Positions 21,901 to 62,400 of a DNA stretch of 64,000 bases are shown one piece after another (the stretch's first letter is position 1; the number at the start of each line of letters is the position of its first letter). Under the pieces are notes generated by a model that ran no database searches, was not told the DNA's origin, and worked only from the letters and a program-made list of their open reading frames with translations. Origin of the DNA: an uncultured Candidatus Saccharibacteria bacterium (GTDB lineage Bacteria; Patescibacteriota; Doudnabacteria; UBA920); NCBI GenBank assembly GCA_964532425.1, contig CAZHIA010000003.1, positions 5,594 through 69,593 of the forward strand. The letters run 5' to 3'. The position numbers and the translations under genes were made by a program.

Positions 21901-24354
21901 GCCGCTCCCGCCACCATCGTTCGAACCGCCGAACGCGGTAATATTACCACCGCCGCTCCCGAGATCGGTAGGGTTAGTTATCGAACCGTATGTACCGGTC
22001 GCATTCACCTGGCTGCCGTTTCCCCCACTGCCTCCATAGGAGGCCCCGGCATTAAAATTGTGCGGCGTTATTTGAGCTGTCCCCGGACCATATCCTCCGG
22101 TAAAACCTTTCGAGTCAGCCGAAATAGAGCCGCTGACAGTTAAGCTGCCGCCAATATTTGCATTAATCCTTCCTCCGATTGTGCCCGAGGTTGCAACACT
22201 GTGAGTAACTACTGCTCCGGAATATACAATAAAATCCCCGTTTGTACTTAATGGCGCAGACAGGGCGTCATAATTAAAATTGAGGACTGACGCAACCCCT
22301 CCACCCACGACTCCGAGCGTCAGTGAGTTTATTGCAGTCGGACCGTTTATATTGACAGTCGCAGCTGACGCTATCACCGCATCATCTGTTGGTCCAGGGA
22401 CGCTACCGCTGCTCCAGTTTCCACCGTCTTCCCAATTATTCGTACCTGCCCCGCCGGTCCATGAGACCGCTGAATTATAGGCATCGGCGCGAACTCCACC
22501 AAAATCAAAAACCATGTGATGATCTCCCGTACGGAGGTCAAGAAATTTTACGGTAGCCACACTATCACATTGCCACTGGGGAACGTACACGGAATGGTCA
22601 GGACGCTCCTGGACACTAACCGCCTGATCGCCGCAGGCCAAGCTCTCAAACTGCATATCGGCCACGGTATCCTGATCAGCCGGCGAGATCACTAAGTCGG
22701 AAACTCCCGTGGTCATGAATTCGATATCCCAATACTGACCAGTTATCGGATGGGAATATACGTTCAGTACCGAAATTTCTACTGTCGGGTCGACAATGAC
22801 CGGATACGAGGCATCCTTGAGCCACTCGGCGTCCGGGATAACAGTGAGCAAATTATTCTTAAGCTTTAGTTCCAGCTTCTGGCTGACACGGCCAGCACTA
22901 TCGCTCATTTGTGGAGCGGTGATTGAATACAGTTTGTAGAGCGATTGGCCGAGATATCCTTTTTTGTAGAGGTCAATTCTGTTTGGTGAAGCTTGAAGGA
23001 AGTCGTAAGTATCCATATTCAGCAAATACCGGAATTTACGGGGATGGTGAGAATTTTTCAATACAATAGATTCTTTCAAACTTCTTGCAGAGATGTCGTA
23101 CTTCACATCAGTATTCTCAAAAACATCCGAATACGTTACCGTATCACCGGACCTTGTTCCACCTGCTGCTGCCCGAGAACCAATCATAAGCATGGACAGC
23201 ACACTTGGCGCTGGCGACGACCCTTCCGCAATGGTAATCGGTTGTGACAAATCACTCGGTAAGGCAACGTCCGCGGTTTTGGTGGAACGGTGGATCAGCG
23301 AAAATTTCTGCTGGTCTCTGAGTCGATCCTGCAGTGTGTCCGAATTCTGCACTACCCCTTCCTCAGCGACCGGTTCAGAGTATTCGGCTTTAATTTTAAC
23401 TCCATCGATGGAAAGCAGTGCATCGCTCTCATCTCCCTCTCGTAAGGAACCGGGAATGAATCGCATACGAACAGTACTGCTTCCAATTTTCGTCAAAAAA
23501 GGACGAGGAAGCTCATATTCGATAAAGCCACCCATGGCGGCGTTGGAAAATCCGCCATCCAAATTGACCACTCCTGCTTTTTTCCAGGTCTGGTCCTGGT
23601 CAAAATATTCGACTTGCAACTTGGCACCAGGCAGCGGTACAGAAGCCATCGAAATATCAATCTTTAACGTTCGTAGGTAGTCAAGATTTGGAAGGGTTGT
23701 CGAGGAGTCCTCCTGGTGAAAACCAGAAAATTCAAGATCGTAGGCAGTGGCAGAATCCTCCTGGTTTTCATTCGGACTTTGTGTGACTGATGGCTCAGTT
23801 GTGGTTGCTAATACGGACGACTCCGAGCTGCTCGGAGCGGCCTTGTCATCAGAGACGACAGGGTCTGAAATTTGTGGCACAAGATCTGCGCCAACCTCTA
23901 CCGGACCAGAACTGGCAACAGTACTTGTCGCAGCGAGGTTTGCCAATTCTGATTCAATACCAAACGCCTGAACAGCCTGAGTAACATCATCCCCAGCAGA
24001 AGATTTTTCTTCCAGATTGCCAAGAAAACTCAGCTGAGCAGAATTCGACGAAGTAAACATTGATGAATCAGCGTCTGCACCAAGCTCAGTTACGAGAGCA
24101 TTATTTACATTCTTCCAAGCAAATTTTTGGCCACCAGCCCCTGCTACTGCGGTCACCACTTGCGGAACGAATCGCAAGCTGTACAGACTATTGTTTTGGT
24201 CACCTGGAGCGTCAGATTGGCTGGTCGTATCGGCTTTCACGAGGATAACACCAGACTGAAATAATTGCGCAACAAAAAAAACGGCCACCAGAATTCTGGT
24301 TGCTAAAACGGCTAACCTGGGGTAAGTTTTATTTCTGGTTTTTATCAGTTTCAA
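15973..24354 (-). CDS. giant secreted/surface protein (2793 aa) with signal peptide, Gly-rich beta-helix-like repeats, FN3/Ig-like repeats, F5/8 type C (discoidin) domain, Pro-rich stalk and C-terminal TM anchor region
   Basis: N-terminal MKLIKTRNKTYPRLAVLATRILVAVFFVAQLF. Repeated GGSGGNGS / NGGNAFSCW tracts. NAFDGNPNTYWSS discoidin-like motif. Duplicated ~110-aa modules (SSLGPNLFVTNTW... / AYLGNGPLVNGSW...). PPSGGGGGPATPPVSQAPPQTPSVPP linker. C-terminal hydrophobic helices and a carboxypeptidase-regulatory-like segment (VLVDLIDVRSGKEVDHAITDLYGKFGF). Confidence 0.85.
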   Translation of the reverse strand: MKLIKTRNKTYPRLAVLATRILVAVFFVAQLFQSGVILVKADTTSQSDAPGDQNNSLYSLRFVPQVVTAVAGAGGQKFAWKNVNNALVTELGADADSSMFTSSNSAQLSFLGNLEEKSSAGDDVTQAVQAFGIESELANLAATSTVASSGPVEVGADLVPQISDPVVSDDKAAPSSSESSVLATTTEPSVTQSPNENQEDSATAYDLEFSGFHQEDSSTTLPNLDYLRTLKIDISMASVPLPGAKLQVEYFDQDQTWKKAGVVNLDGGFSNAAMGGFIEYELPRPFLTKIGSSTVRMRFIPGSLREGDESDALLSIDGVKIKAEYSEPVAEEGVVQNSDTLQDRLRDQQKFSLIHRSTKTADVALPSDLSQPITIAEGSSPAPSVLSMLMIGSRAAAGGTRSGDTVTYSDVFENTDVKYDISARSLKESIVLKNSHHPRKFRYLLNMDTYDFLQASPNRIDLYKKGYLGQSLYKLYSITAPQMSDSAGRVSQKLELKLKNNLLTVIPDAEWLKDASYPVIVDPTVEISVLNVYSHPITGQYWDIEFMTTGVSDLVISPADQDTVADMQFESLACGDQAVSVQERPDHSVYVPQWQCDSVATVKFLDLRTGDHHMVFDFGGVRADAYNSAVSWTGGAGTNNWEDGGNWSSGSVPGPTDDAVIASAATVNINGPTAINSLTLGVVGGGVASVLNFNYDALSAPLSTNGDFIVYSGAVVTHSVATSGTIGGRINANIGGSLTVSGSISADSKGFTGGYGPGTAQITPHNFNAGASYGGSGGNGSQVNATGTYGSITNPTDLGSGGGNITAFGGSNDGGGSGGGSIILNVAATTTVSGAISANGGNAFSCWDAGGGSGGSVNVVTRTLAGNGAITARGGNACGNASGNGSGGRIAIKYTTDVSSVSYAYYSGTTWPNYGGSGTLYKKAAAQANGDLLLDNNNLNSSGATDERGYGKTPLPVFVMDSVTLKNNAAVYLVGSSSTSTVLTILSNSAYYAQSGTSFSYSSLTWSGTVVDSGGDLAVLRQNQNITIPSGTTLVVAALGASRTYNNVTIDGMLTHAYNTTATTGSASLYKLNWQVNGNLTVSGSGSVNVNGRGYVGGQGPGTSQITPRDNNAGGSYGGSGGNGSAVNAGSPYGSLVNPVDLGSGGGNSSQFGSSNDGGGAGGGAAIFSVTGTTTVDGVISANGSNAFNCWSPGGGSGGSIFITTTNFAGSGSLTSNGGNGCNNGGGGSGGRISVLSSVYNNSVSRSVSGGVGYGAGAAGSLYPASVPSVTSDDVTDILSTTATGHGTILDLPFYQITGYGSVWATYPNPSVPNVNLAILETGTAAASKANIGSASNAFDGNPNTYWSSNQGMSYDLEYDFPVSTVVNKYTITGNNYSGGGDSPRNWTFEAWDGSAWVSLQSISNQVSWANGESRSFNFVNTTPYAKYRLNISANNGGGNTAVAEFKLYDTAGSVASNGITNASGTFISSLTGLAPSTTYHVRMFAMNLKGSVYGTDKTITTGIPNNAPNSPSSLGPNLFVTNTWTASTSPYFTFNLSDPDGADSVKYRIRIDTNSNFSSSQLDYTSALNPQGSYGFTVGQLAGTGTYAIGGPGQVLSDNSSYYWEVQAIDGNGGTSPFSLANSGSIAFKLDSTPPNPGSITFNWLNPDHVDVVVSGASDNLSGIASYNFINLTNSATSTPGGATWTSGGLTPNTKYVFQSQVVDIAGNSASTATSSIYTAAQIPTNATTTVLSATSVRLTWDTNGNPPGTEYYAENSSATSNSGWVTATSTVFAGLSCGNSYSFHVKARNHDGVETAYSAMVSPPASPCNQNPNSPAYLGNGPLVNGSWINLAQPDLHFNLTDPDASDLVGYRMQISTTSDFSGLSVDYTSALAAQGDKTFVVGQNAGSGFYSVGSSAQVLPDSASGYYWRVKTLDQAGAESPWSVANNGLVAFRIDTILPNSGTLSLVSTSTGSVTIAVSGSQDAESGLSVAPYVFSNTDNWDNSGSTAATTWTDTNLPAGTYHYKVRVFDNAGNVGEALLSSQVSVQGAAASGGGGTFDPWASGSETLGFSVYVNQNDPITSTRNVTLQLTGQPGTTLMLVSNLPDLSDATPESYVTTKSWDICQNLGSCGNGTYSVYAKFLNGSGQSSGRVTDSILFQNLTSLVPGTLSVSAVTASSVSVSLTGSADAAYGLAAQPYRYFNRTTAGSSATTSNASWLSTSLVPNTQYDFYAIVTNANNTSGYAPDVFAYTLANVPGNVSTTTVTATAVGLTWDANGNPIGTEYQVENMTASTTTSWISATTTTVSGLACNSHYQFHVKARNANAQETGFSPALDITTSACDLPVQNPPSGGGGGPATPPVSQAPPQTPSVPPTDTGREPVLVPLPPEPAPVSNQPASHRDPDSVQPPVAPAENPPHQTGNLLPGSQAGSSTPIQQIPGEQPPSGGSGSIPASPVTPISPVLEGITSVASNVVRQLGEKISAGRTGIVSMPQLRSMELTSRMATIAIAPTTLTLESSLSTYGLSMNAGSASDIWLYFLRLVYGLLGMLGIRARRRHWGTVYDSKNKQPLDPVLVDLIDVRSGKEVDHAITDLYGKFGFLDKPGLYRIRARKTNYTFPSVHVAGSSDGIYENVYHGEELSVRNGSAPLTPNIPMDQQAFDWNQEDKKRIVKFHPRIEHILNITLELVFWAGLAWTLLVFAMRPNWLNGLFLAVYVVLAVLRKVVPHARLLGRLAGSRDVGGLYLELSPVALPTIVMGKAVTKPNGVFFLKSQPGTYLLKVKEISEDRAVLVYEGQVTIGKQGVLNKTIAIS

Positions 24355-34066: not shown

Positions 34067-34432
34067 TCAGGCAGCGGGTGTTAATTTTTTGATAATTACA
34101 TTTAACATTTTCATTACCTCTATCGCGAGGGAAACGACTTTGGCATATGATTGTTCATCGCAAAATCCAAGTTTGTGAGCAATCTCTATTTGCGTTTCCA
34201 ATTCCGCCCCTGAGGCCAAGGCAATAATTAAGAACTGACGAAAGTCCTTCCTCGTTCCGCGTGTCCTCCCTTCCGCAATATTCGACGGAATGGACACGGC
34301 ACACCTTCTGCTTTGCGAAACCAAACCGAACAATTCGGATTTGGGATAGCATGATGTCATTTGATATACAGCAATAACCAAATCCATCGATTTCTGCCAA
34401 ACGATTAAATTTCGATAGCTCTCGATTGGCAT
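34067..34432 (-). CDS. four-helix-bundle protein (TIGR02436; 23S rRNA intervening-sequence protein family)
   Basis: YRNLIVWQKSMDLVIAVYQMTSCYPKSELFGLVSQSRRCAVSIPSNIAEGRTRGTRKDFRQFLIIALASGAELETQIEIA is a near-consensus match to this family. Flanked by inverted AGCTTATAGCT-type repeats. Confidence 0.85.
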   Translation of the reverse strand: MPIESYRNLIVWQKSMDLVIAVYQMTSCYPKSELFGLVSQSRRCAVSIPSNIAEGRTRGTRKDFRQFLIIALASGAELETQIEIAHKLGFCDEQSYAKVVSLAIEVMKMLNVIIKKLTPAA

Positions 34433-36383: not shown

Positions 36384-36854
36384 TTAATCAATTTTGTGAT
36401 ATTTCCTTACTAACCACTCCGATACATACCCAGTATACTTTCTTCTTACTTTGTCTGGCATATTTCGGTAGGCTCCAATAATTCCCCGGCAGCTTTCCGT
36501 TTCGCACTTGCACTGCATCCGCCACCAGGTGCTATCCTCGGTCATTTCATAGTCCCAGGTAATCTCCTCGCCAGGTTCTATATCCCGCATCGCCACGACT
36601 TCGACTAAATTCCGAATGCCACAATTCGGCTCGCATGAATGATTGATTAAATGGGCAGATCCGGCCGGCATGCGCCATTTCGCCGGGGCGATTTGAATGG
36701 AGTGGTGAAGCTCGTAGGAAGTAAAGTCGTCCTTTGCCGTAAGTATTTTTCCGTCAAAAGCCTCAACTAACTCCCCTTTCTTAATCTTTTCAGTAACAAA
36801 AACTCCCCAGCCGCCTACGCGACTTTTTTTTACCTTCAATTTCGGATTTTTCAT
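36384..36854 (-). CDS. SET-domain protein (putative protein-lysine methyltransferase)
   Basis: NHSCEPNC and EITWDY motifs plus a C-terminal Cys cluster (post-SET-like CKCETESC). Confidence 0.8.
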   Translation of the reverse strand: MKNPKLKVKKSRVGGWGVFVTEKIKKGELVEAFDGKILTAKDDFTSYELHHSIQIAPAKWRMPAGSAHLINHSCEPNCGIRNLVEVVAMRDIEPGEEITWDYEMTEDSTWWRMQCKCETESCRGIIGAYRNMPDKVRRKYTGYVSEWLVRKYHKID

Positions 36855-37060: not shown

Positions 37061-38383
37061 TTACTTCGTCACTTCTTCCAAGGCCTTGTCCATCTGAGGA
37101 TCCTGGCCCTTGTCCACGTTCTCCTGGGTCAAGGTAACCTTCACGTCCGGTTCCAAACCGTCATGGTTCAGGTTTTTGCCGCCCGGGGTGATCCACTTGG
37201 CCACTGTGATCTTTAAGGCACTGCCGTCTTTAAGGGAAACTAATTCTTGGACACTACCCTTGCCGAAGCTCTTTTCTCCAATAAGTTCCGCTGCCTGGTG
37301 GTCATGCAAAGCTCCGGAAAGGATTTCCGCAGCCGAAGCGCTGCCGCCGTTAATCAGAACCACGGTTTTCACACCTTTAAGCTTGGCCTGGCCTTCCGCA
37401 TTGTATTTGGTCGGGTCACCCTCGCTCTTGGCTTCGGTTACCACCAGGTCTCCGGGAGCAAGCCAGTTGGAAGCCACGTCGACTGCAGTCTGCAAATAAC
37501 CGCCAGGGTTGTTGCGTAAATCGATCACAATCCCATTAACGTTCTTGGTCAGGATATCGTTCACTGCCTGGTCAAACAAGGGCTTAGTATCGTCGCCGAA
37601 CTGGGAAAGGGTAACGACTGCAATTTTCTTTCCATTCACATCTTTATAATCCCACTTCACGCTCTTCACTTTAATCTCGTCACGCACGATCGGCACATCG
37701 AACGGTTTATCCTTGCCCTGGCGGATGATCGTAAGCGTCACTTTGGTACCTTTGTCGCCGCGGATCTTGGCCACTGCCTGATCAACTGACCATTCAGCGG
37801 TCGATTGGCCATTGACCGCAGCCACTACGTCTTTGGCCTGCAGTCCCGCTTTTTGTGCAGGTGAACCGTCAATGGGCGCCACAATAGTAATGACACCGTT
37901 CTTCTGTCCGATCTCAGCGCCAATGCCGAAGAATTTGCCGCTTAGGTTTGTTTGGAAATCTTTTAATTCCTGCGGTTCAAAAAATGTAGTGTAAGGATCA
38001 CCTACCGAAGACACAGCTCCCTGGATGGCACCATACAACACCTTTTGCTGATCAACCGGCTTATCGATGTACTTGCTGTTTAACGTGCTGACAGCGTCCC
38101 ACAGCAGGTTATAATCCACTACTTGCGGCTGATTGGCTTGGTTGACGACCTTAAATTCCTTAGGAATAAAAATAAAGCCTCGATGGCCGGCGGCATATCC
38201 CGCACCGTAGCTGATTCCGACAATGAGCAGGACGGCGATGATTCTCACAAACAAATTATTACGGAGCGGAGCCGGGACAGCAGCGGAAGCAAGCGGTGCG
38301 GCAGCAGGCACAGCATGGGCGCTGGGGGCCTGAGGGACCGGAGGTTGCGCATTCTGGTTCTGGCTGTTTTCAGATGAATCCAT
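37061..38383 (-). CDS. ctpA: carboxyl-terminal processing protease (S41, PDZ-containing)
   Basis: PDZ segment GIGAEIGQKNGVITIVAPIDGSPAQKAGLQAKDVV and S41 catalytic region GGSASAAEILSGALHDH. N-terminal TM anchor. Confidence 0.88.
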   Translation of the reverse strand: MDSSENSQNQNAQPPVPQAPSAHAVPAAAPLASAAVPAPLRNNLFVRIIAVLLIVGISYGAGYAAGHRGFIFIPKEFKVVNQANQPQVVDYNLLWDAVSTLNSKYIDKPVDQQKVLYGAIQGAVSSVGDPYTTFFEPQELKDFQTNLSGKFFGIGAEIGQKNGVITIVAPIDGSPAQKAGLQAKDVVAAVNGQSTAEWSVDQAVAKIRGDKGTKVTLTIIRQGKDKPFDVPIVRDEIKVKSVKWDYKDVNGKKIAVVTLSQFGDDTKPLFDQAVNDILTKNVNGIVIDLRNNPGGYLQTAVDVASNWLAPGDLVVTEAKSEGDPTKYNAEGQAKLKGVKTVVLINGGSASAAEILSGALHDHQAAELIGEKSFGKGSVQELVSLKDGSALKITVAKWITPGGKNLNHDGLEPDVKVTLTQENVDKGQDPQMDKALEEVTK

Positions 38384-38464
38384 AAAAAATCTTATATTTT
38401 CCTGTTAAATATAATGAGCAGATGGGAATATTATAACACAAATAGGTTGCGTGATGCCAATAAA

Positions 38465-38562
38465 ACATTTAACCTTTGACAATTGACATTTAACCGATGA
38501 AATCAAAATCATCGTGTGGCATTATGTCAAAAGTTAAAGGTCACAGGTCAAATGTTGGGAAC
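38465..38562. repeat. intergenic word-repeat element (ACATTTAACC/TTGACA family)
   Basis: AACATTTAACCTTTGACAATTGACATTTAACC ... AAAGTTAAAGGTCACAGGTCAAATGTTGG. Confidence 0.6.
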
Positions 38563-39555
38563 TCACCTGCTTACCCTCGGATCACTCTTAACAGAATTGA
38601 TGACGATCAGTGTCCACATCCGCGCATAAATGCCGCAATAGACCAGCCAATTGAACCAAAACGGATATTTTTCGCGATAATGCTTGCGGTAAAAAATCCA
38701 CATAGCGTCATGGAACCAACGGAGGGCTTTGGTTGCGACCTTGCGGCTAGATTCGCCTTTGTAATGAGTAATGAACGTTTGAGGATAGTACCAAACCTTA
38801 AAACCCGCTTCCTTGCAGCGCCAGCACCAGTCCAGGTCTTCGCCGTACATGAAAAACGTTTCATCCAGCAGCCCGATCTTTTCGACAACATCCTTCCGCG
38901 CCAGACAGAAGGCTCCAACCAGACTGTCAATCTCCGATTCCTGGTCAGCCGTCTCATCCGAAAAGTTATACGCCGCATCTCCGGCTACCTTTTGCAAGTG
39001 TAAAAACCGCAGCATGGCATTCCACGGGTTCGGGAATTTCCGCCGCGCCGCGCGATCCAGGCTACCATCCGGCTTCATAATTTTGCACGTGCTCATGCCC
39101 ACATCCGGATGTGTTTCCATAAAATCGAGCATCACTTTGAACGTGTCCGGTTCGACCTTGGTATCGGGATTAAGCAGGAGGACGTAACGTCCGGTTGACT
39201 GTTTAATGCCGATGTTGTTGCCAGCCGCAAAACCGTTGTTGATGTTACGGATAAGCTTATAGCTATCAGCTGTCAGCTTATAGTTTTCGAGCCATTCATA
39301 GGTGCCGTCCGGTGAACCATTGTCGACGATGATAACCTCACCGGTATATTGCGCTCCATGAGGCTGGCTATTGGCTTGCTGTTCGGATGTAGGGGCGACT
39401 ACCAGCCGCCCTTCAGATTGCGGGCGGCCAGTGGCCGCCCCTACAAAAACCACCCTCTTACTACCCCAAATCGAAGGCAGCAGCACTTTAAGGTGTTCTT
39501 TGGACCGGTAGGAAAGAATAATAATGGAAAGATCAAACCTATTGACAGAATTCAT
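38563..39555 (-). CDS. glycosyltransferase family 2 (rhamnosyltransferase-like), with about 40-aa in-frame insertion
   Basis: LSIIILSYRS ... IIVDNGSPDGTYEW ... NNGFAAGNNIGIKQSTGRYVLLLNPD are GT2 motifs. An insert (WGSKRVVFVGAATGRPQSEGRLVVAPTSEQQANSQPHGAQYTG) is encoded by the palindromic element at 39389-39444. Confidence 0.8.
   Translation of the reverse strand: MNSVNRFDLSIIILSYRSKEHLKVLLPSIWGSKRVVFVGAATGRPQSEGRLVVAPTSEQQANSQPHGAQYTGEVIIVDNGSPDGTYEWLENYKLTADSYKLIRNINNGFAAGNNIGIKQSTGRYVLLLNPDTKVEPDTFKVMLDFMETHPDVGMSTCKIMKPDGSLDRAARRKFPNPWNAMLRFLHLQKVAGDAAYNFSDETADQESEIDSLVGAFCLARKDVVEKIGLLDETFFMYGEDLDWCWRCKEAGFKVWYYPQTFITHYKGESSRKVATKALRWFHDAMWIFYRKHYREKYPFWFNWLVYCGIYARMWTLIVINSVKSDPRVSR
39389..39444. 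mobile_element. 56-bp palindromic element GTAGGGGCG...CGCCCCTAC inserted in-frame in the GT2 gene
   Basis: Termini GTAGGGGCG / CGCCCCTAC are exact reverse complements. The inner GCCGCCC / GGGCGGC arms add a second stem. Confidence 0.55.
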
Positions 39556-39595
39556 AAATTGTAGTATAACAAATGGTCAAAGGAGGAAAAAGATA

Positions 39596-39985
39596 ATGTT
39601 TTTTGAAGGAAAACAGGTCTATATTCTCATTATCGAGGAAGGCAAAAAGGTCCTCGCCAATGTCATCGGCTGGCATCTTGAACCAAATGACCAACAAGGT
39701 GCTTTCGAAAAACCCGAAAAGATCCTCTACGAAACCGGCACAGAACGGCTGCCACTGGAGCACAATCACAAGATCCAACTACTCTGTGACCCGACCCTGT
39801 TTGTCAAAGGCGGACCTGAATGGGGAGAATTTGTTCCCCGCAGGGACGACGAACGGAACGGCCGCGGAGTCTTGATTGTTTTCGATGACTTCGACGGCAA
39901 TACGGTGTGCGGGCTCTTGAACTCTCAGTGGTCTGCGTTCGACACCTGCAGCCTGTATGAAGGCTCGCTCCTTGTCTTTCTTTGA
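39596..39985 (+). CDS. hypothetical protein (129 aa)
   Basis: Strong SD AAAGGAGG 8 nt upstream of the ATG. Followed by a terminator. Opposite strand to the flanking GT genes. Confidence 0.55.
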   Translation: MFFEGKQVYILIIEEGKKVLANVIGWHLEPNDQQGAFEKPEKILYETGTERLPLEHNHKIQLLCDPTLFVKGGPEWGEFVPRRDDERNGRGVLIVFDDFDGNTVCGLLNSQWSAFDTCSLYEGSLLVFL

Positions 39986-39999
39986 GCTGTGTCCCGCTT

Positions 40000-40040
40000 C
40001 CGGCCATGCGTCAAAAACGCATGGCCAGCTTTATTTTATT
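40000..40040 (+). terminator. rho-independent terminator
   Basis: Hairpin GGCCATGCG/CGCATGGCC followed by CTTTATTTTATT. Confidence 0.6.
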
Positions 40041-40129
40041 ACAATAATACTGACAGTATTATAGCGCTCTTTCAACACTGTTTTTCAAATGGGCAAAACG
40101 TGCTATTGTTGTATTGAAAAGGTGGGACA

Positions 40130-40513
40130 ATGGAACAATTGAAGTTTATATTCGAGCCGGTTTCGCTGCAAGTTGGCGACACCCTCCGGGTTTCAAAGGT
40201 TGCATGGAAAATATCTCTTACCAACGAGATTGGTTTTGCCACCAAACTCCCGGAAGAATCCACAGAAGTCATCGTGCATGCCTGCGCCTTTATCCCACTG
40301 GCTGGCATCGGTCATTCCGCCCTCAAAGGCATCATCCATTACAGGAACGGAGAACTGTTATTTTACCGGCAAAACCATTTTGGCCATGCCTGCAGAGAAC
40401 CGCTCTACCTTTCCCGTTTCTGGGATGGTGATATCATTACCATCACCAGCACCCCGAGCCGGCACCCTTCATCAATTCAAAACACCCAGATGCCGTGCTT
40501 GACCACTCAGTAG
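40130..40513 (+). CDS. hypothetical protein (127 aa)
   Basis: SD AAGGTGGG upstream. No family recognised. Confidence 0.5.
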   Translation: MEQLKFIFEPVSLQVGDTLRVSKVAWKISLTNEIGFATKLPEESTEVIVHACAFIPLAGIGHSALKGIIHYRNGELLFYRQNHFGHACREPLYLSRFWDGDIITITSTPSRHPSSIQNTQMPCLTTQ

Positions 40514-40549
40514 CGTGCACTATAGACATCCGACGGGCTGGAGGATTTA

Positions 40550-40753
40550 ATGTCGAAGAACAAAACAAGAAAAGCTGAGGTTATGGAATACGTAACTTCA
40601 AAAGATGGTAAGCTGATCGGCCGAAAAGGACAAGAGGTTTACCTTCCAGAAGGCTATGTAGCCCAAGTCATCGCTGTCCCGGTCAACTCGCCGGAGGGAC
40701 AAGTATTAAAATCACACGATGCACGCCAGTGTCCGAACATCGCCTCAACATGA
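40550..40753 (+). CDS. hypothetical small protein (67 aa)
   Basis: SD GGAGG upstream. Terminator downstream at 40810-40838. Confidence 0.45.
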   Translation: MSKNKTRKAEVMEYVTSKDGKLIGRKGQEVYLPEGYVAQVIAVPVNSPEGQVLKSHDARQCPNIAST

Positions 40754-41788
40754 CCTGGCGACATCTCCTGGTCTCTGAACGATTTGGCGCTTCCGCCACA
40801 TTTTCGGCAACTGCCTGAACATTTCAGGCAGTATTTTTAATGTCGAAATTTCGAACAGCACTATATAGCCTAGCATAAAAAATTCCCGGATAAAAAATTG
40901 AGGATAAAAATGCCGCGAATTTTTGACATACATAAAAATATGGTTCTTATAGTTGAGCTGCTTCACCCGCGGACTAATCATTTTATGATGTTTGATAAAC
41001 CCCGACACATCAGCATATCCATTTTTCGATGAGCCTGCACCCCTGCCGTGATAGCCGACCGCCTCAGGCACAAACACGCATTTCCAGCCTGCATTCCGCA
41101 GACGCCACGCCAGGTCAACATCTTCCCAGTAGGAATGGAAGTCCTCGTCGAAATACTCGAACTGACCTTTGGCATTTGGCATTTGACACTTAACCGCTTC
41201 CAAAGCGGTGCGTCGATAAGCACATCCGGCACCGGAAACCGCATCGACGACTAGCTCATTGTCGTACTGGCCCCGATCAATCTCATGCTGCCCGCGGTCG
41301 CGTGCGCGCCCAGATTTGCTAATAGAAACACCGGTCGTGTCTAAAATATTGGTCTTCTGTACGGGACGGCTCGCCTCGCTCGACACGAGTCGAAGCGGGT
41401 CACGACCGTCCCCTACGGGAAATCCAAAATTGCACCGCAACAACTTCCCCGTCGCCGCCCCCACCTTCTCATCTTCAAACACTTTCACCATCCGCTCAAT
41501 GTAATCCGGCTCCATGATAAAATCCGGATTAACCAACTGAAAAAGATCGCTCTGGTATTTCTCGAACACTAAATTGTGCCCTTTAGAAAATCCGATGTTA
41601 TACCCAGGATCTATTATCTCCACCTGGGGGAACTTTTCCGTGAGCAGTTCTTTGCCATGGTCATCATTGCCGCTTATAACCGCCACGACGTGGATATTCT
41701 TGTATGTCTGGTTAAAGATAGCCGAAAAGACCGGTTCAATAAATCGGCGGTTGTTGTAAATGACTTGAATTACGATAACCTTAGGCAT
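40745..41788 (-). CDS. glycosyltransferase family 2 (rhamnosyltransferase-like) with in-frame palindromic insertion
   Basis: GT2 N-terminal fold (VIVIQVIYNN...AVISGNDDHG) and C-terminal DVDLAWRLRNAGWKCVFVPEAVGYHGRG. The segment VGDGRDPLRLVSSEASRPV is encoded by the element at 41359-41416. Confidence 0.8.
   Translation of the reverse strand: MPKVIVIQVIYNNRRFIEPVFSAIFNQTYKNIHVVAVISGNDDHGKELLTEKFPQVEIIDPGYNIGFSKGHNLVFEKYQSDLFQLVNPDFIMEPDYIERMVKVFEDEKVGAATGKLLRCNFGFPVGDGRDPLRLVSSEASRPVQKTNILDTTGVSISKSGRARDRGQHEIDRGQYDNELVVDAVSGAGCAYRRTALEAVKCQMPNAKGQFEYFDEDFHSYWEDVDLAWRLRNAGWKCVFVPEAVGYHGRGAGSSKNGYADVSGFIKHHKMISPRVKQLNYKNHIFMYVKNSRHFYPQFFIREFFMLGYIVLFEISTLKILPEMFRQLPKMWRKRQIVQRPGDVARSC
40810..40838 (+). 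terminator. rho-independent terminator
   Basis: Hairpin CTGCCTGAACATTTCAGGCAG followed by TATTTTT. Confidence 0.6.
41359..41416. mobile_element. 58-bp palindromic element GTACGGGACGG...CCGTCCCCTAC inserted in-frame in the GT2 gene
   Basis: Termini are reverse complements with the same single C/G asymmetry as the alaS copy. Inner GGTCACGACC resembles the GGTCGCGACC core of the other copies. Confidence 0.55.
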
Positions 41789-41830
41789 AAAAATTTAATG
41801 AGCAACATTTGACATATGACATTTAACCTT
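41789..41830. repeat. intergenic word-repeat (AACATTTGACATATGACATTTAACC)
   Basis: Same word family as 6426, 26409, 29704 and 48717. Confidence 0.55.
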
Positions 41831-41972
41831 TACCTGTAGTGCAGGCCCTCGGCCTGCCTGTATTCAAATCGCACTGATCTATGGCAGCCCACGGGGCTGC
41901 ACTACATCAATTCTTTAATTTTGAATCAACTAAAAAGTCGAATCTCAATTATCCAAAGTTTAAATGTTGCAC

Positions 41973-43583
41973 TTATTCTGCTTTCATCTCCTCATATCGC
42001 CTAATTATCCCTCCTGAAAGCCCCAGGGACAACAGGAAAAAGAACAACACCTTGTCATTCATGAGCGTCACGTCAAAGAAGGCAGAGGTAAGGATCCAGA
42101 GCACGACCAACAACTGAAGGAACACAAAAAATACCAACACATCCTCAGCCTGCCGGTGCGCCCAGAGGAAGTTGACGAACGTGTGGAGAATGTTGACCCA
42201 AAACACCGCAAAAGCGATTAGGCCGGCCAGACCCAATTCCACCAGCACTTGGATGTACAGGTTGTGCGCTGACACGAATTTGAGCGGCAAATTGTAGCGC
42301 TTGCTGTGGATCTCGGCTGCCTGCTGGTAGCTTTCTACGCCAGGACCGGAAAGTGAAATGAGAAAGTTGCCCAGGCCCACGCCCTGCGGGTGGCGGGCTG
42401 CAAACTTCAGCGAGTCTTTCCAAATTGCCAGGCGCCCGGCATTACTAACGTCCTCCGGATCGTAAATGCTCTGTGCGCGCTGCAAAAAGTTTTCCTGGAA
42501 TTTGGAACCGAACCGCAGGTAATTAAACGCCCTGTTATAGAGCGGCGAGGCGGCAAAGAATACCAAAATGATAATAAATATCCAGAACATTTTTTTGGCA
42601 AAAAGATGAAATACATTCTTACGGTACAGAACGCCGCTCACGAGCAGTGGCGCCGTGATGCCGACCCAGACAGCGCGTGTTCCAGACAGAATGATGGCCA
42701 GCGAGGCAAACCGGATACCCGACCACAGCCAGTGTCTGACCCGGTCGCGCACCACCAGCACCAGTGCGGTCGCCCAGCCCACGGCCATCATGGTCATGTA
42801 CCCGAATGACTGAGAGTCCGGCATGATGCTGAACATGCGCAGCTCACGGCCTGCGGTATACGAAAACCACGAGTTGGAATATAAGGCAATCCCCGCAAAA
42901 TTAGCACCATAATACAACCTGGTAATAAAGCTGTCCCAAAAGACCCAAAACGTGTCCAGGTTCGTAAAGAATGTCGAGAACAGTTGAATGTACCCGAGTA
43001 GTATGATGGCCGTAAAAGACCAAACCGCATACTTCATGAGCAGAATAGCTTGGGCTCTGGTTTTCAGCACGTTGGCCAGGACAACATAGGGCAGATAGAT
43101 ATTCAGCCAGAAAATTGCCACGCGATACCCCTGCATCGGAAATTTAGCAAAGGTTGCAGTCACCACGACGGCAATTACAAAAAACGCGGCTAAAAATTTA
43201 TCCCATGAAAAAAATTCCAAGCCCGACAGAAAGTTACTCGCTGCTTTGAGTGGGTCGCGGTTACCACCGCTCCGAAATTGCTGCCATACCCCTTTGACCG
43301 CCCATGCCGCAAATAGCACGGCGAACCAAATGCGCCAGACAGACAGCGTATCGAACCTCTTATTGGGTACCGCAACATACCAAGGCACGGACAATACCAG
43401 AAACAACAAACCGTCGAATGGATCCGCCGCAATAAGAAACAACGCGCCGAGCGCCAGCGTGGCCCAAATGATACGGTCAGGCCAGCCGCCCAAGACGATC
43501 ATCAACAGACTGATGAGCTGCCAAAGAAATAATATGAAAATATAGAATCTGGGGTTTTTCAATAGAGCTTTCTGTATGATCAT
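41973..43583 (-). CDS. O-antigen ligase/polymerase-like membrane protein (Wzy_C / WaaL family)
   Basis: At least 10 predicted TM helices. VSAHNLYIQVLVELGLAGLIAFAVF resembles the O-antigen ligase motif. Large periplasmic loop. Confidence 0.65.
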   Translation of the reverse strand: MIIQKALLKNPRFYIFILFLWQLISLLMIVLGGWPDRIIWATLALGALFLIAADPFDGLLFLVLSVPWYVAVPNKRFDTLSVWRIWFAVLFAAWAVKGVWQQFRSGGNRDPLKAASNFLSGLEFFSWDKFLAAFFVIAVVVTATFAKFPMQGYRVAIFWLNIYLPYVVLANVLKTRAQAILLMKYAVWSFTAIILLGYIQLFSTFFTNLDTFWVFWDSFITRLYYGANFAGIALYSNSWFSYTAGRELRMFSIMPDSQSFGYMTMMAVGWATALVLVVRDRVRHWLWSGIRFASLAIILSGTRAVWVGITAPLLVSGVLYRKNVFHLFAKKMFWIFIIILVFFAASPLYNRAFNYLRFGSKFQENFLQRAQSIYDPEDVSNAGRLAIWKDSLKFAARHPQGVGLGNFLISLSGPGVESYQQAAEIHSKRYNLPLKFVSAHNLYIQVLVELGLAGLIAFAVFWVNILHTFVNFLWAHRQAEDVLVFFVFLQLLVVLWILTSAFFDVTLMNDKVLFFFLLSLGLSGGIIRRYEEMKAE

Positions 43584-44677
43584 TTCTGTGTCGTAAGTAC
43601 TTGTAAAGTCTGCCGCGCGCAGCGCTCCCAGCCGAACTGTTGTAAGCGTACCTTGCCTTGTTCCCTAAGCCGCTCAACGAGAGACTGGTCGCAGAGCAAA
43701 GCTTTGAGACAGTTTTTTATATCATTCTCATCGGTTGGGTCAAAATATACCGCCGCCTCCCCTGCCACTTCGGGCATGCTGGAAATGTTGGAAGTAGCCA
43801 CTGGAATCCCGGCATCAAACGCTTCTAACAAGGTCATACCAAACCCTTCATACAGGCTCGGCAATATGAACGCATCCGCCCGCCGCATCACTTCAAGGCG
43901 GTCAGAATCACCTATGTGCCCAAGGTACTCCACACAATCGCGATGTTGCTCTATTTCCTCCATTGACTCCTGGAATTTCCAGCCTTGCCGCCCCGCTATG
44001 ACCAGCTTATGCGGCAGCTCGGGCAGTTCAGTTTTTAACTTGGCAAAAGCACGGACCAAGGCCGGAACATTTTTTCTCGGTTGTAGCGTGGATAAAAAAT
44101 AGACATACCGTTCCGGCAGCCGCTCTGCAATCTTGCCAGCGAGCTGCATACCCGAGGGCGGACGCGGTTCAAATCCATGGTGAACAACTGCAATCTTGTC
44201 AGCTGGCAGGTGGTAGACGCGCATAATGTCCTGTTTGGTGGATTCTGAAACTGCAATGAGGCGCGATGCCGAGCGGGCGGCGAACCAGGAAGAAATCTTC
44301 AGAAAATTACGATTGAACCAGGTTTCCGCTTCGGGATAAAACAGCCATGCCAGGTCATGAATGGTGACCACGCTCTGGCGCGGGTGCACGAGTGGCAATG
44401 CCGAGGCCGGAATGAACAAGACGTCTACCGGATGGAAAAGTATCTCCCAGCTGATGCGCAGCTGCGTCCAGAACAGCGGAAATGGCATAACCTTTACTGA
44501 AAAATTTTTAGGCAAATTTAAAAACCAGTCCTGAGGCTTGGTTCTAAGATACAGAATATACTCATTGTCGCGGTCGAGCGCCGCCAAATGCAAAATAAGC
44601 TGTTTGGCGTAATGTTCTACACCGGTCTTTTGAAGGCTGTTAGCCCGCTCTGCTTCTATGCCAATGCGCATAGGCAT
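43580..44677 (-). CDS. glycosyltransferase family 1 (GT4)
   Basis: EGFGMTLLEAFDAGIPVATSN motif. ATG chosen after a TTG-initiated extension. 4-bp overlap with the downstream ligase gene. Confidence 0.8.
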   Translation of the reverse strand: MPMRIGIEAERANSLQKTGVEHYAKQLILHLAALDRDNEYILYLRTKPQDWFLNLPKNFSVKVMPFPLFWTQLRISWEILFHPVDVLFIPASALPLVHPRQSVVTIHDLAWLFYPEAETWFNRNFLKISSWFAARSASRLIAVSESTKQDIMRVYHLPADKIAVVHHGFEPRPPSGMQLAGKIAERLPERYVYFLSTLQPRKNVPALVRAFAKLKTELPELPHKLVIAGRQGWKFQESMEEIEQHRDCVEYLGHIGDSDRLEVMRRADAFILPSLYEGFGMTLLEAFDAGIPVATSNISSMPEVAGEAAVYFDPTDENDIKNCLKALLCDQSLVERLREQGKVRLQQFGWERCARQTLQVLTTQK

Positions 44678-44707
44678 ATTATACCGCAATTGCAGCCGCG
44701 GGAACAA

Positions 44708-47252: not shown

Positions 47253-48716
47253 ATGCTGAAAACCAAATTTTCTCCATTTTTTTTCTTACTTGTATTTGCA
47301 ATTGTGCCTTGGCCAGCTTCCGCTGATACTTCAGCCAGTTCTACGATCGGTGATATGAATACCGCAACAGCAACCGCGCCGACATTAACCATAGGAAACA
47401 GCGCGGCAATATCCACAACTACTGCAGGCTCGGTCCTTGGCCTGCAGGCCCCTGCCAAACCCCCGCTCATACAGGCAATCGAGAATGCCAAAGCGCAACT
47501 TGTTCCGGTCAGCTTGAACCATGCATTGACACCGGTCTCCAAGAACATCAAAAATAAAAAAACGAAAAAAACGACCAAGGTTATTACCGGGTATAACCTT
47601 ACGGCTAAAGATATTGCCCTGGCCATTCTCGATCCCGCCACTCAAAACGTTACCATTGTTAAAGGCATGCAGACCGGTAAAACCATGACCTTCAATGATC
47701 CGGCGGCGGATGTTAAATTGACCAGCTTCAATGGCGTCAATAGCCGCTTTTCCGTGAGCCGGCCTGCGGGAGGCACGGTCATTGCCCTAAAATATCTCAT
47801 CACCGGCACGGAATCCAGCAGCAAAGCAGCCATTGAGAATAGCATCTCGGAAGCCATCTACGTCCCCTATTCACCGGCACTTTCCAGCCCGGATGTCGTT
47901 GCCTATGGCGCCAATTACTTAAATGGTGTTATCAGACAGGTTACCGCAGGCTTGCAAGGCCTCCCTTCCCAGGCAGTACCCGGAAAAACCATCACCGAGG
48001 CCATCAAACCGTCACTGGTCAAGGCTCTGGTCTACGCCGAACATACGGATACCGGCAAGATCCTTTCCGGCAATCAAGATGACATCTTAGGCACCATAGA
48101 CCAGTTGAATATCTTGTTTGCTACCAACGAAGAAGACACCTACCGCTACAGCGTCAGCTCGGCCGGCGCCCGCGGTATTGCGCAATTTATGCCCTCCACG
48201 TACGCTTCACTGGTCCAGCGCCACCCTGAAGCGGCGCTGAATCCCGATTTTGTCGCGGGCATGTCCGACCATGTCAACGCCATTAAGGCCATGTATCTAC
48301 TCATCGACGACTATGCCGGTACGGTGCGCGTCAAAGCCCAGCAAGGCTATGCCGAAGGCCAACTGTTCGATTATGGAGCTGCTTCGTACAACGGCGGTAC
48401 CACGCGCGTAGCCAAGGCCGTCAATGCGTTCGGACAAAACTGGAACGCGGACCGGTCAGGCGAGATTGCCAGCATGCAGGCGCAAATCAATTCGCTGTCC
48501 TCGCAATCGAAAACCTTAGCTTCAAAGATCAAGAAGGCGAAGGACAAAAAGACCAAGGCTGATCTGCAGGCGCAGCTGTCCCAAGTCAAGAACCAGCTTG
48601 CCTCCACCTCAAACCAACTGGACACCATGCAATCAGCTACTCTGCGGAATGAAACTGTCAATTACCTGAAAAAAATCTACAATGTCATTCATGTCTTTAA
48701 TGACCAGCAGATTTAG
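47253..48716 (+). CDS. secreted protein with lytic-transglycosylase-like motif and C-terminal coiled coil
   Basis: Signal peptide MLKTKFSPFFFLLVFAIVPWPASA. SSAGARGIAQFMPSTYA resembles the SLT-domain motif S.AGA.GLMQ.MP.T. C-terminal heptad-rich KKAKDKKTKADLQAQLSQVKNQL. Confidence 0.5.
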   Translation: MLKTKFSPFFFLLVFAIVPWPASADTSASSTIGDMNTATATAPTLTIGNSAAISTTTAGSVLGLQAPAKPPLIQAIENAKAQLVPVSLNHALTPVSKNIKNKKTKKTTKVITGYNLTAKDIALAILDPATQNVTIVKGMQTGKTMTFNDPAADVKLTSFNGVNSRFSVSRPAGGTVIALKYLITGTESSSKAAIENSISEAIYVPYSPALSSPDVVAYGANYLNGVIRQVTAGLQGLPSQAVPGKTITEAIKPSLVKALVYAEHTDTGKILSGNQDDILGTIDQLNILFATNEEDTYRYSVSSAGARGIAQFMPSTYASLVQRHPEAALNPDFVAGMSDHVNAIKAMYLLIDDYAGTVRVKAQQGYAEGQLFDYGAASYNGGTTRVAKAVNAFGQNWNADRSGEIASMQAQINSLSSQSKTLASKIKKAKDKKTKADLQAQLSQVKNQLASTSNQLDTMQSATLRNETVNYLKKIYNVIHVFNDQQI

Positions 48717-59426: not shown

Positions 59427-62400
59427 CTAGTTATTCAGTATCAGCCACGAAAGCAACTTCCGCTTCCGGTACACTGCGAATCCTGCCATCGCCAGGGCGC
59501 CAAAGGCCAAAGCCATGGTATCCGCACCGGTCTTCGGGGCAATGAACGCACCCTGGACCTGCGGGGTATTGATGTTGATCCGCACGGTGTTGCCGTACGT
59601 ATTGGTCATGACGTAATTCAGGTTGCTTGCCAGGAAGTACTTGACGCGCACCTGGAAGGACTTGCTGACACTGCCGCCGGCCGGAATGGTGACTGCTGGG
59701 AAGGTAATAACCTGCCCGTTCACCTGGCCGCCGCCGTAATCAACCATGTCCGCAAACGGCAGGACACCGGAGAGGTCATCGGTAATGACGAAGTTGGTCG
59801 CCGGGGAATTACCGTTGTTTGTCACAGTCAGCGTATAGGTGATGAAATCTTCCTTAGATGCAGGCACGGACTGGGCATCCACATTCTTGGTAATGTTCAT
59901 CGCCCGCTTGTTGTAAGTCAGGTTAATGTTACCACCCTGAACCTGGCCGACGTAGACCCAAGCGCTTGCTTGGACCTGGCCGACGTTATCAGCCTGGGCA
60001 TAAGCAATGTTCTGAATGCCGTTCTGACCATAGGTAGTAGTCGTGTAAGAGGAGTTGACTCTGGCCTGGAATGTGATAGTGCGGGACTGGTACGAACCCA
60101 AGTTTCCAATGTACAGCGTGCCGCTGTTGCCAAAACTGTCGGAAGCTCCGGTACCGTCCATCTGCACCGTGCCCGGTACGAAGCTCAAGCCTTGCGGCAA
60201 GGTATCGGTTACGCGCACATTGGTCAGATTCTGACTGCCCGGGTTCTGGACGCGAATCTGGAACTGCACAGTATCACCGCTACTGACTGTAACACTGCTC
60301 TGGTATGAGGCGCCGTTTAATGTGCGCACCAGTTTAGTAATGGTCAGTTGTCCAGGCTGGTTGTATTGCTGGATCACGATAGTGTTAGCAATGAGCAGCA
60401 CGTTGCAGTTGGCATCGTACATATAGAAGGTGTACGAATTACCCGCGGTCATGTTGGTTACCTGGTAGGTACCGTTCGGGCCGCCAGTAATAACCGTGTT
60501 TGACAAGGTGCCCTGGGTAATGCGGATCTGGTTGGAGCCGCTGGAAGACCAGGTCAAAGTTGAGGACCAGGTGTTGCCGTTCTGTACCGGAGTACTAAAC
60601 GTCAGACTGGCATTAGTGTTGACCACGCACTGGTTATTGACATCCTTGCGGATGACCAAGGTCGCCACCAGCGCACCACAGGAAGAGGTGTCATACAGTT
60701 TGACGATGTAGTTCTTATTGGCCTGAATCTGGTTGAATGTATAGGAACCGGGGCTGACGGTAATATTTTGCACCAGCACGACTTCCTGTCCGTTATCCGG
60801 ATTGACGTAAGTCAACCGCATCGGGTTGGAACCGGAATAGCTGTAGGCAATCACGGCCTGGTAGTACCCGTTGCCCATATCGGTAATTGCACCAGTGGTC
60901 AGGCTCACGTTGCTGTTGATGACACAGACCGGGGGCTGCTGGCTAATCTGGACCGTACAGATCGAAGATTGGCCGTTGCTTGTGACTGTTGCGGAGTATT
61001 GGCCGGAGCCACTGAAGACGTTCGAGAACGAAGAACCGCTGCCGGTCCTGCCGTTGCTGGAGGTCCAGGAATACGTGCCATTACCGCCAGTGGCGGTGAA
61101 GTAGACAGTCTGGCCGGAGTTGGCAGTCTGGCTTGCCGGGCTGCACTGCACCTGCTGAGGATTCGGAGGCGTACTGACATTCACGTTACAATTAGCCGTC
61201 GTGCTGCCATCGCTGACCGTTACGGTCTTGCTGCCGCCGCTGGCATAGGAAGTGTTGAAAGAAGAGCCATAACCGCCGGTCGGGTAACCGCCGTTGGCAG
61301 TCCAGGTATAGTTTCCCGTACCGCCGGTAGCGGTAAAGTAGACGGTCTGGTTGACATTGGCACTCTGATTGGAAGGAGAACACTGCAAGGTCTGGGTCGG
61401 CGGAGTGGACACCTGTACCGTACAATTTTGAGACTGTCCGTTGCTGGTTACAGTTGCGGTCTGTTGGCCGGCCTGGTTAAAGACATTCGTGAAGGTATTT
61501 CCGGAGCCGGTCCTACCGTTGGTGGAGGTCCATGAGTATGTACCGTTACCGCCGCTGGCCGAGAAGTACACGGTCTGTCCGGTCTGGGCAGTTTGGCTCG
61601 CCGGGCTGCAGATGAGCTGCGGGTTGTTCGGTTGGTTGACAATAGCCTTACAGGTGGCGGTCTGTCCGCCGCTGGTCACGGTGACAATGTAGCCATTCGG
61701 ATTTGCGGAATTGTAACTCGTGTTAAAGGATAACCCGCTGCCTGAGGTGTTTGAAGAAAGCGGAGCAGACCAGGAGTACGCGCCAGTGCCGCCGGTGGCG
61801 GTGAAGTAGACCGGCTGGCCGACATTCACCGTCTGGCTGGGAGGAGAACACTGCAAAGTCTGAACTGGCGGAGTGCAATCGCGCACTGTAAAACTGACTG
61901 TACGGCTAATGCCGGAAATGGTCGCTGTCTTGGTCCAGTTGCCAATATTGGCCGTGGTCCAGGTTGAACCCACGTCACTCCAGAATCCTAAACCGCCGCT
62001 GCCGGAAACAATCTGGCCGACGTAGTAGTTGTTCTCACCGGTATTCTGGCCGTTGAGGGTGGAATTCCACAAGATCCGTTCGCCAATCAAATTCGCGGTG
62101 GCCACGATGGTGTAACGGGTGTTTTGGCCGACACAGAAATTGTTGTCGGTCGTTAACGTGAAATCTTTTTGCTGTGGCGGAGTCTGGTTCACCGTGACAT
62201 TACAATTGGAGGATACTCCCCCGCTCGTTACGGTGACTGTTTTGGCACCGCTCGTGCTGTAGGAAGTTGAGAAGCTGTAGCCGGAACCGCTCGCCGGACT
62301 GCCGCCATTGGCAGACCAGGAATAGGAACCGTTGCCGCCGGTCGCCGTAAAGTAGACTGGCTGGCCTTGGTTGGCTGTCTGGTTGGAAGGAGAACACTGC

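Follow-up and report, generated by a model that had tools for sequence, protein, structure and literature searches.

Loci for surface polysaccharides such as O-antigen and capsule keep conserved flanks of glycosyltransferase, Wzy and Wzx genes, and the content of the junctions between these genes varies from relative to relative. A junction of this type lies in a 64,000-nucleotide (nt) stretch of DNA from an uncultured bacterium deposited as Candidatus Saccharibacteria (GenBank assembly GCA_964532425.1, contig CAZHIA010000003.1, positions 5,594 to 69,593; this whole stretch is called the window, and its own coordinates are used below). The host genome is that of a Candidatus Doudnabacteria member of the Candidate Phyla Radiation (CPR, or Patescibacteria), whose genomes are small and in which a large share of the genes is uncharacterised. 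Here an islet of three small plus-strand open reading frames (ORFs), ORF1 to ORF3, separates two minus-strand family-2 glycosyltransferase genes, which we call GT2a and GT2b. The junction is like the slots of described polysaccharide loci in its conserved flanks and its variable content. It is unlike them in that its occupants are independently transcribed small soluble proteins that match no family, encoded on the opposite strand, rather than sugar-modifying enzymes, and in that the most recurrent of them is also found outside glycan loci in other lineages.

We interpret the islet as a genome-specific filling of a variable slot in a conserved Doudnabacteria cell-envelope glycan locus, in which ORF2 is under selection and ORF1 and ORF3 are young orphan genes, and we assign this interpretation a probability of about 0.55. 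Small lineage-specific genes in the variable region of a polysaccharide locus are an already known kind of feature; the protein family to which ORF2 belongs is new. The analysis tells three things apart, namely an undescribed CPR protein family, two orphans that are candidate young genes, and a variable slot in an otherwise rigid glycan locus. Its value lies mainly in correct annotation and in a small, defined target for structural and functional work, and it changes no major question.

A variable slot between two glycosyltransferase genes

The gene order GT4-Wzy-GT2b-GT2a-S41 peptidase-AlaRS (alanyl-tRNA synthetase) is syntenic in 15 GTDB species-level genomes and about 10 metagenome contigs. 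In about half of these relatives the gap between GT2b and GT2a is shorter than 130 nt (10-125 nt in the related loci numbered L003, L004, L008, L009, L012, L013, L014, L016, L072, L073, L076 and L089), so that the inserted islet proposed in an earlier note on this DNA is borne out in the form of a variable slot, a junction that is empty in about half of the syntenic relatives. Longer gaps of 350-880 nt (L005, L006, L007, L010, L011, L015, L027, L069, L071/L079 and L074) have mutually unrelated contents, which are small opposite-strand ORFs, a same-strand methyltransferase or an unknown protein of 255 amino acids (aa). The methyltransferase, which is dependent on S-adenosylmethionine (SAM), lies at 7113-7859 in L007, 4058-4786 in L071 and 495-1223 in L079, with 33% identity between the L007 and L071 proteins; the 255-aa protein, at 1177-1944 in L074, has no Pfam match. 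The presence or absence of the islet genes in sister genomes, a check that the earlier note had put forward, agrees with a slot: ORF1 and ORF3 are found in none of the syntenic relatives (15 species loci and about 10 metagenome loci), and the ORF2 family is found in some. An origin of the islet as the remnant of a decayed minus-strand gene was rejected, as no similarity to either the methyltransferase or the L074 protein was detected.

The architecture of the islet is as the earlier note had described it, with three plus-strand ORFs at 39596-39985 (ORF1), 40130-40513 (ORF2) and 40550-40753 (ORF3). Each has its own Shine-Dalgarno (SD) sequence (GGAGG, GGTGG and GGAGG, respectively), the two rho-independent terminators both consist of a stable GC-rich hairpin followed by a U-run, and the flanking glycan genes all lie on the opposite, minus strand. 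On the left, the slot is bounded by GT2a (38563-39555, minus strand; Pfam Glycos_transf_2, E 2e-19), whose syntenic orthologues in relatives are 36-62% identical. On the right stands GT2b (40745-41788, minus strand, convergent with ORF3; Pfam Glyco_tranf_2_3, E 8e-18), with orthologues at 42-74% identity in metagenome-assembled genomes of Candidatus Doudnabacteria and other Patescibacteria. The minus strand carries 29 of the 30 ORFs of at least 200 aa in the window. The islet is not an assembly artefact, because an identical one is present in the independent Logan assembly of run SRR11567520. Since a terminator follows ORF1 and none separates ORF2 from ORF3, the predicted signals divide the islet into two plus-strand transcription units, ORF1 alone and ORF2-ORF3.

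The ORF2 protein family

ORF2 (40130-40513, plus strand) encodes 127 aa and is preceded by its SD (GGTGG, 40121-25, 4 nt before the ATG) and by a weak promoter-like site (TTTTCA, 16 nt, TATTGT; 40082-40109, plus strand), which may drive it. Its closest relative, P0003, is 63% identical, was the only relative returned by a word-indexed search, and is encoded on an 803-bp ENA contig (L002; ERZ27283013), where the N-terminus of GT2a and the C-terminus of GT2b flank it directly, without any ORF1 or ORF3 DNA. The TATTGTTGTA -10 region and the GGTGGGACA SD of ORF2 are conserved in L002 (alignment columns 101-135). Between the two genes, the proportions of synonymous and nonsynonymous differences (pS and pN) are 0.70 and 0.24, with omega about 0.15, and in this one close pair the nonsynonymous divergence (dN) is 0.29 for ORF2, beside 0.30 and 0.20 for the flanking fragments of GT2a and GT2b. 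A codon model of the host gives 0.239 +/- 0.098 for real fragments of 128 codons and -0.086 +/- 0.169 for shadow ORFs. Under this model all three islet ORFs score positive and each is the best of its six frames; the ORF2 score of 0.088 is near the 5th percentile of real fragments, yet it is best in its own frame. Judged by this substitution pattern, ORF2 is a genuine protein gene under purifying selection.

A profile search run exhaustively over 1.84 billion representatives added about 10 full-length relatives, 104-122 aa long (E 1e-12 to 5e-4), and these define a CPR-restricted and previously undescribed family of small proteins of about 105-125 aa. In alignment A3 (12 sequences) residues Q3, D17, G35 and D101 are invariant, and the full-length matches (104-127 aa) share the motifs EQL.F.FE.V, GD.L, NE.GF.T, PEG, HY.NG and LW.GD.ITI..LP. 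A local hidden Markov model of the family picks up every member at E below 1e-37 and no other sequence. Members are mildly acidic (isoelectric point (pI) 4.6-7.0) and have neither a hydrophobic N-terminus nor a signal peptide. Four large repetitive proteins from the profile search (P0005, P0012, P0014 and P0018) were rejected as low-complexity or repeat artefacts rather than domain fusions, a metagenome scan with the ORF2 alignment A2 found nothing, and a literature search returned nothing relevant.

The AlphaFold2 model of ORF2 built with A3 is an all-beta fold of seven strands (pLDDT 85.8, pTM 0.73; with two sequences only, pLDDT was 44). In being compact, seven-stranded and all-beta, it resembles small beta-barrels such as the F1-ATPase N-terminal barrel, nsp13 1B, Uba1 FCCH and Sm/SH3-like domains, and the best Foldseek matches are generic small barrels of this sort; none is significant (PDB best E 0.42, TM about 0.3; BFVD best E 0.07), and membership of any such superfamily is not established. 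By sequence, the 12 members yield nothing usable in PDB sequence profiles, Pfam, PHROGs, PADLOC or NCBIfam, the weak matches being one to SH3_9, some to LSm3 by sequence, one of a single member to a PHROG (E 0.052), and a chance-level one of a single member to PADLOC (E 0.058). Kinship with the DnaK substrate-binding domain, raised by weak PDB matches and a grpE-dnaK gene context, was rejected at an hhalign probability of 0.4% (E 0.13). With a confident predicted structure, the family can now be named and tested.

The family gene occupies the GT2a/GT2b junction, on the opposite strand, in nine independent contig groups (the window, L002, L010, L061, L062, L063, L065/L100, the P0009 contig and L151/L152). 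In two other CPR lineages it is co-directional with its neighbours, in the order grpE-102aa-family-(PaaX_M)-dnaK-dnaJ in L066-68 and metG-family-tatD-rpsF-ssb-rpsR in L150 and L153. Both grpE/dnaK and metG/tatD are usually adjacent pairs, split here by the family gene (L066-L068, 4690-5357; L150, 713-1498; L153, 4001-4336). The 102-aa ORF that precedes the family gene in L066 is coiled-coil-like, and in L150 a DUF559 endonuclease-like gene follows it. Because the gene has housekeeping neighbours in these lineages (metG and tatD, or grpE and dnaK), the function of the family is not intrinsically one of glycan synthesis or defence, and its role would not depend on glycan chemistry. We infer that the members would serve as small cytoplasmic binding or adaptor proteins, not as enzymes, toxins or defence proteins.

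The recurrence of the gene exactly between GT2a and GT2b in nine independent contig groups would also fit a subunit that assists or regulates the glycosyltransferases on either side, one that binds GT2a or GT2b, for example, to modulate activity or specificity. Small regulatory domains modulate other GT2 synthases, and the slot itself holds a glycan-type modifier, the SAM methyltransferase, in L007, L071 and L079. We nevertheless regard a dedicated subunit as improbable: most relatives that have both GT2 genes lack the family gene, the gene is opposite-strand and independently transcribed, the metG/tatD and grpE/dnaK contexts include no glycosyltransferase among the called neighbours, and neither sequence comparison nor Foldseek matched the family to a PilZ-like or other regulatory domain.

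ORF1, ORF3 and the origin of the islet

ORF1 (39596-39985, plus strand) encodes an acidic protein of 129 aa (pI 4.7) without a signal peptide. It is preceded by a perfect GGAGG at 39582-86, 9 nt before its ATG, and by a sigma-70-like promoter at 39542-39570 (plus strand), read by eye and of putative function, in which TTGACA (39542-47) and TATAAC (39565-70) are spaced by 17 nt. The -35 box overlaps GT2a codons 3-5, and the site is absent from the automated promoter scan, which accepts a -10 box only with T as its sixth base. Directly downstream of ORF1 lies intrinsic terminator 1 (40002-40039, plus strand; hairpin 40002-40026 and T-run; -21 kcal/mol, z -4.5), a 10-bp stem with seven GC pairs, a 5-nt loop and the tail TTTATTTTAT, which none of 200 shuffles equalled in stability. 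It would act on the plus strand only, because its minus-strand version lacks a U-tail, and it is predicted to close the ORF1 transcription unit. Between terminator 1 and the ORF2 promoter-like site, a perfect 9-1-9 palindrome, ATAATACTG-A-CAGTATTAT (40044-40062), is unique in the window (expected 0.01) and is a candidate operator. ORF1 scores 0.212 in the codon model, a value typical of real genes, and its GC content at third codon positions (GC3) equals that of the host. In 5.8 billion clusters (about 15 billion proteins) it matched only itself, and no match was found in 1.06 Mb of related loci, phage and plasmid collections, IMG/VR or PDB sequences. ORF1 is probably a taxonomically restricted gene, on its coding statistics and signals.

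ORF3 (40550-40753, plus strand) encodes a basic protein of 67 aa (pI 9.2) and overlaps the GT2b stop by 9 nt; the public gene call starts it at the second ATG, at 40583, which gives 56 aa. Its perfect GGAGG (40540-44) lies 5 nt before the ATG, and ORF3 is probably co-transcribed with ORF2, as no terminator lies between them. The same 5.8 billion clusters contain no match for ORF3 other than itself, and IMG/VR, PDB sequences and the 1.06 Mb of related loci contain none; its sole PHROG match is weak (phrog_29853, a 41-position family of unknown function, E 3.9e-4). No paralogue of ORF1 or ORF3 exists within the window. Its sequence makes ORF3 a possible gene, likewise taxonomically restricted. 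Copies of a 12-nt direct repeat, TTTAATGTCGAA, enclose ORF3, the GT2b tail and the terminator 2 hairpin: copy 1 (40546-40557, plus strand) includes the ORF3 start codon, and copy 2 (40836-40847, plus strand) comes directly after terminator 2. The repeat occurs in two copies only in the 64 kb, and at least two copies arise in 4 of 100 shuffles, which is not significant alone; the repeat is possibly an insertion or duplication scar. Segmental duplication as the source of the ORF1 and ORF3 DNA was rejected, as this 12-mer is the only repeat and local alignments do not rise above those of shuffles.

ORF1 and ORF3 are like orphan or de novo genes in being homologue-free and short, with a host-like composition and a position in an expanded intergenic region next to an older gene. 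They differ in that no sister genome was found to have a non-coding precursor homologous to them: in L002, where at the syntenic site 48 nt separate GT2a from the ORF2 homologue and the homologue overlaps the GT2b tail, the corresponding DNA is absent rather than non-coding. De novo birth of ORF1 and ORF3 is not demonstrated because L002 lacks this DNA.

Other islets have comparable neighbours. ORFs with a GGAGG stand beside the family gene in L010 (104 aa), L065 (96 and 103 aa), L151 (69 aa) and the P0009 contig (100 aa), and the upstream partners are acidic in several islets. In L065 there are promoter-like sites for the family gene and for the downstream ORF, and a terminator for the family gene. 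These companions have no detectable similarity to ORF1, ORF2, ORF3 or one another. Descent of ORF1, ORF3 and the gap ORFs of relatives from ORF2 as divergent paralogues was also rejected, with hhalign scores within the range of shuffles and BLAST negative; the exception in hhalign, the upstream ORF of L010, is just above its shuffle maximum at 1.7% probability. We picture ORF1, which is predicted to be expressed, and less certainly ORF3 as young restricted genes that would have accumulated next to ORF2, and unrelated small SD-bearing ORFs may have accumulated likewise in four other islets. A stronger version would make the GT2b/GT2a junction a "gene nursery" anchored by the undescribed beta-protein family, with a fold unrepresented in the PDB, where small, independently transcribed SD-bearing genes repeatedly arise de novo or diverge beyond recognition, and where convergent transcription, stopped by the terminator within GT2b codons, tunes the surface-glycan operon; we hold this version to be doubtful.

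The orphans could instead be non-functional spacer frames, with ORF2 as the only gene and with the SD-like motifs and the ORF1 hairpin incidental. Such an account would draw on the lack of homologues of either ORF in about 15 billion proteins or 1.06 Mb of related loci and on the absence of both DNA segments from the closest relative, L002. It is countered by the ORF1 codon score, the best of six frames, and by the finding that shuffles of the 1189-nt gap contain two ORFs of at least 127 codons in only 0.2% of cases. The perfect GGAGG motifs ahead of both ATGs, the promoter-like site of ORF1 and the terminator right after its stop, and the GGAGG motifs on companion ORFs in other islets also speak for genes. 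We judge the spacer account unlikely.

Several observations weigh against our interpretation of a selected ORF2 and two young genes in a variable slot. The ORF3 codon score, 0.078, exceeds those of the other five frames but ranks only around the 5th-10th percentile of real fragments, and 20% of shuffles contain a third ORF of 67 codons or more, which makes the length of ORF3 compatible with chance; both points also favour spacer frames. The ORF2 family is rare, being present in 1 of the 15 GTDB species loci. Its members are about equally distant from one another (30-44% identity; the flanking GT2a proteins have 56-69%), and the two sets of distances are uncorrelated. Equal distances and rarity make vertical descent with many losses inseparable from exchange among Doudnabacteria by recombination through the conserved GT2 flanks, and a co-divergence test of the family and GT2a was uninformative because all pairs are saturated. 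The assignment as a binding protein is a default one, since Foldseek against PDB and BFVD, the two collections compared, gave no informative fold match. Finally, no minus-strand promoter for GT2a was found in a scan limited to consensus sigma-70 sites.

The earlier note had seen in the islet a typical position for a horizontally acquired module of defence, toxin/immunity or phage-receptor modulation, and this proposal is not supported. The patchy distribution in a surface-glycan locus, the small genes, the acidic upstream partners and the 12-nt direct repeat around ORF3 would all suit a conflict module, whether a toxin-antitoxin (TA) or toxin-immunity pair made of acidic ORF1 and ORF2 or an anti-phage or phage-receptor cassette; the flanking GT4 also weakly matches the Pfam GT4-conflict model. 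The composition is that of the host, with a GC content of 0.47-0.51 and GC3 of 0.46-0.59 in the islet genes against 0.51 and 0.59 in the host, so the comparison of GC and codon usage that the note had suggested gives no sign of foreign DNA. PADLOC-DB v2 has no family for ORF1-3, Pfam and NCBIfam hold no meaningful match for them, in agreement with the note's impression that they resemble no known family, and no defence match above chance level was found for the 12 family members; the PHROG matches, one for ORF3 and one for a family member, are both weak. The family gene also sits at this junction in nine divergent contig groups, and in the pair with L002 its dN is similar to that of the flanking GT2 fragments. 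No relative of ORF1-3 is found in IMG/VR, and the phage and plasmid collections, searched with ORF1 alone, contain none. The scanned flanking genes match no integrase or transposase family, no inverted repeats flank the islet, and no tRNA was found in 25000-55000. We conclude that a conflict module is quite improbable, and the tempting label of a "defence island" is best dropped as unsupported. The contrary pattern that the note had named is not seen either: the three genes are not universal in relatives, and they match no known glycan-biosynthesis accessory family in Pfam or NCBIfam.

A type II TA pair in particular would resemble ORF1 and ORF2 in the adjacency of the two genes, in their products of about 125-130 aa and in an acidic upstream product. 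It is argued against because a strong terminator splits ORF1 from ORF2 and because several ORF2 homologues lack partners: no partner ORF lies upstream of the family gene in L002, L062, L063 and probably L061, and in L002 and L063 nothing but the family gene is seen between the two GT2 genes. Where partners exist they are mutually non-homologous, neither ORF1-3 nor the family members match a known toxin or antitoxin family, and in other lineages the gene lies co-directionally between housekeeping genes.

ORF1, a 42-aa ORF (39989-40117), ORF2 and ORF3 share one reading frame (39524-40753), probably by coincidence, given the extra in-frame stops and the occurrence of ORF2 alone in L002. A single disrupted gene and an alternative genetic code were rejected on the same two grounds, together with the normal reading of the flanks with table 11.

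Convergent transcription and neighbouring features

The ORF2-ORF3 unit is predicted to end at intrinsic terminator 2 (40810-40839, plus strand; hairpin 40810-40832 and T-run; -22 kcal/mol, z -6.2), a GC-rich 10-bp hairpin within the last approximately 30 codons of GT2b, where it occupies the codons for LKILPEMFRQ (STLKILPEMFRQ). A block of 36 nt here is identical in the window and L002, and 11 of its 11 degenerate codons are unchanged, compared with 11 of 29 elsewhere in the fragment (Fisher p 3e-4). This constraint at synonymous sites indicates selection at the nucleotide level for a plus-strand structure that would end the ORF2 transcript. The distance from the ORF2 stop to terminator 2 is 33 nt in L002; in the window the ORF3 segment lies between them. 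The hairpin is missing from all other relatives though the peptide motif is kept. As a hairpin and T-run in GT2b under synonymous constraint, terminator 2 is like known terminators that lie within the last codons of a convergent gene and makes a clean example of an intrinsic terminator held at synonymous sites; it is unlike them in being restricted to the window/L002 clade and in that termination is predicted only. Just past it, in the GT2b 3′ coding region, lies a 15-nt tandem repeat of 2.5 copies (ATAAAAAATTCCAGG-like, 40875-40910).

The islet splits the co-directional GT4-Wzy-GT2b-GT2a-S41 series and is transcribed convergently into GT2b, and for this reason its expression should counteract read-through into GT2a, and the reverse. 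In islet-free relatives GT2a begins right at the stop of GT2b, an arrangement suggestive of translational coupling, which the islet would have broken. GT2a lacks an SD before its ATG in the window and in L002 alike, and its distance from ORF1 is only 40 nt (39553-39600).

From this arrangement one could derive a function in cis, with plus-strand transcription as an antisense or interference switch that uncouples GT2a-S41 from GT4-Wzy-GT2b, and with the peptides secondary. The position of terminator 2 inside GT2b implies that plus-strand transcripts would be antisense to 90 nt or more at the 3′ end of the GT2b mRNA; the synonymous conservation of terminator 2 between the window and L002, the overlap of the ORF1 -35 box with the GT2a start codons, and the lack of a predicted minus-strand terminator or promoter in the islet point the same way. 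Against a switch stand the protein-level purifying selection on ORF2, the conserved residues and fold of its family, the confinement of the embedded hairpin to the window/L002 clade, and the ordinary terminator that the family gene of L065 has of its own. We consider a primary role in cis very improbable, and favour the interpretation of the islet as the filling of a variable slot around a selected protein gene.

Beyond GT2b, the right flank continues on the minus strand with a Wzy_C protein gene (41973-43583) and the GT4 gene (43580-44707). Rfam covariance models applied to 38000-42500 gave one chance match only (E 0.7, far under the gathering score), and the islet has no tandem-repeat features. 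Within GT2a, an insert at about aa 37-66 is lineage-variable and of low complexity, with another length and sequence in L002, and contains a 24-nt imperfect palindrome (39388-39445; arms 83% complementary, 10-nt spacer).

On the other side of GT2a, a gene for a SET-domain protein (36384-36854, minus strand; Pfam SET, E 7e-17) separates the S41 peptidase gene from that of AlaRS in this genome only; homologues are absent at that site from all 15 syntenic Doudnabacteria loci, which marks a second variable slot of the locus. Directly downstream of AlaRS is a 23S_rRNA_IVP gene (34067-34432, minus strand; four-helix-bundle, bAvd-like; Pfam E 2e-37). Elsewhere in the window, two giant ORFs on the minus strand (15973-24354 and 59427-63980) encode 2793 and 1517 aa, and the only other long plus-strand gene (47253-48716) encodes 487 aa with weak matches to T4SS (E 3e-5) and SLT transglycosylase (E 1e-3) families.

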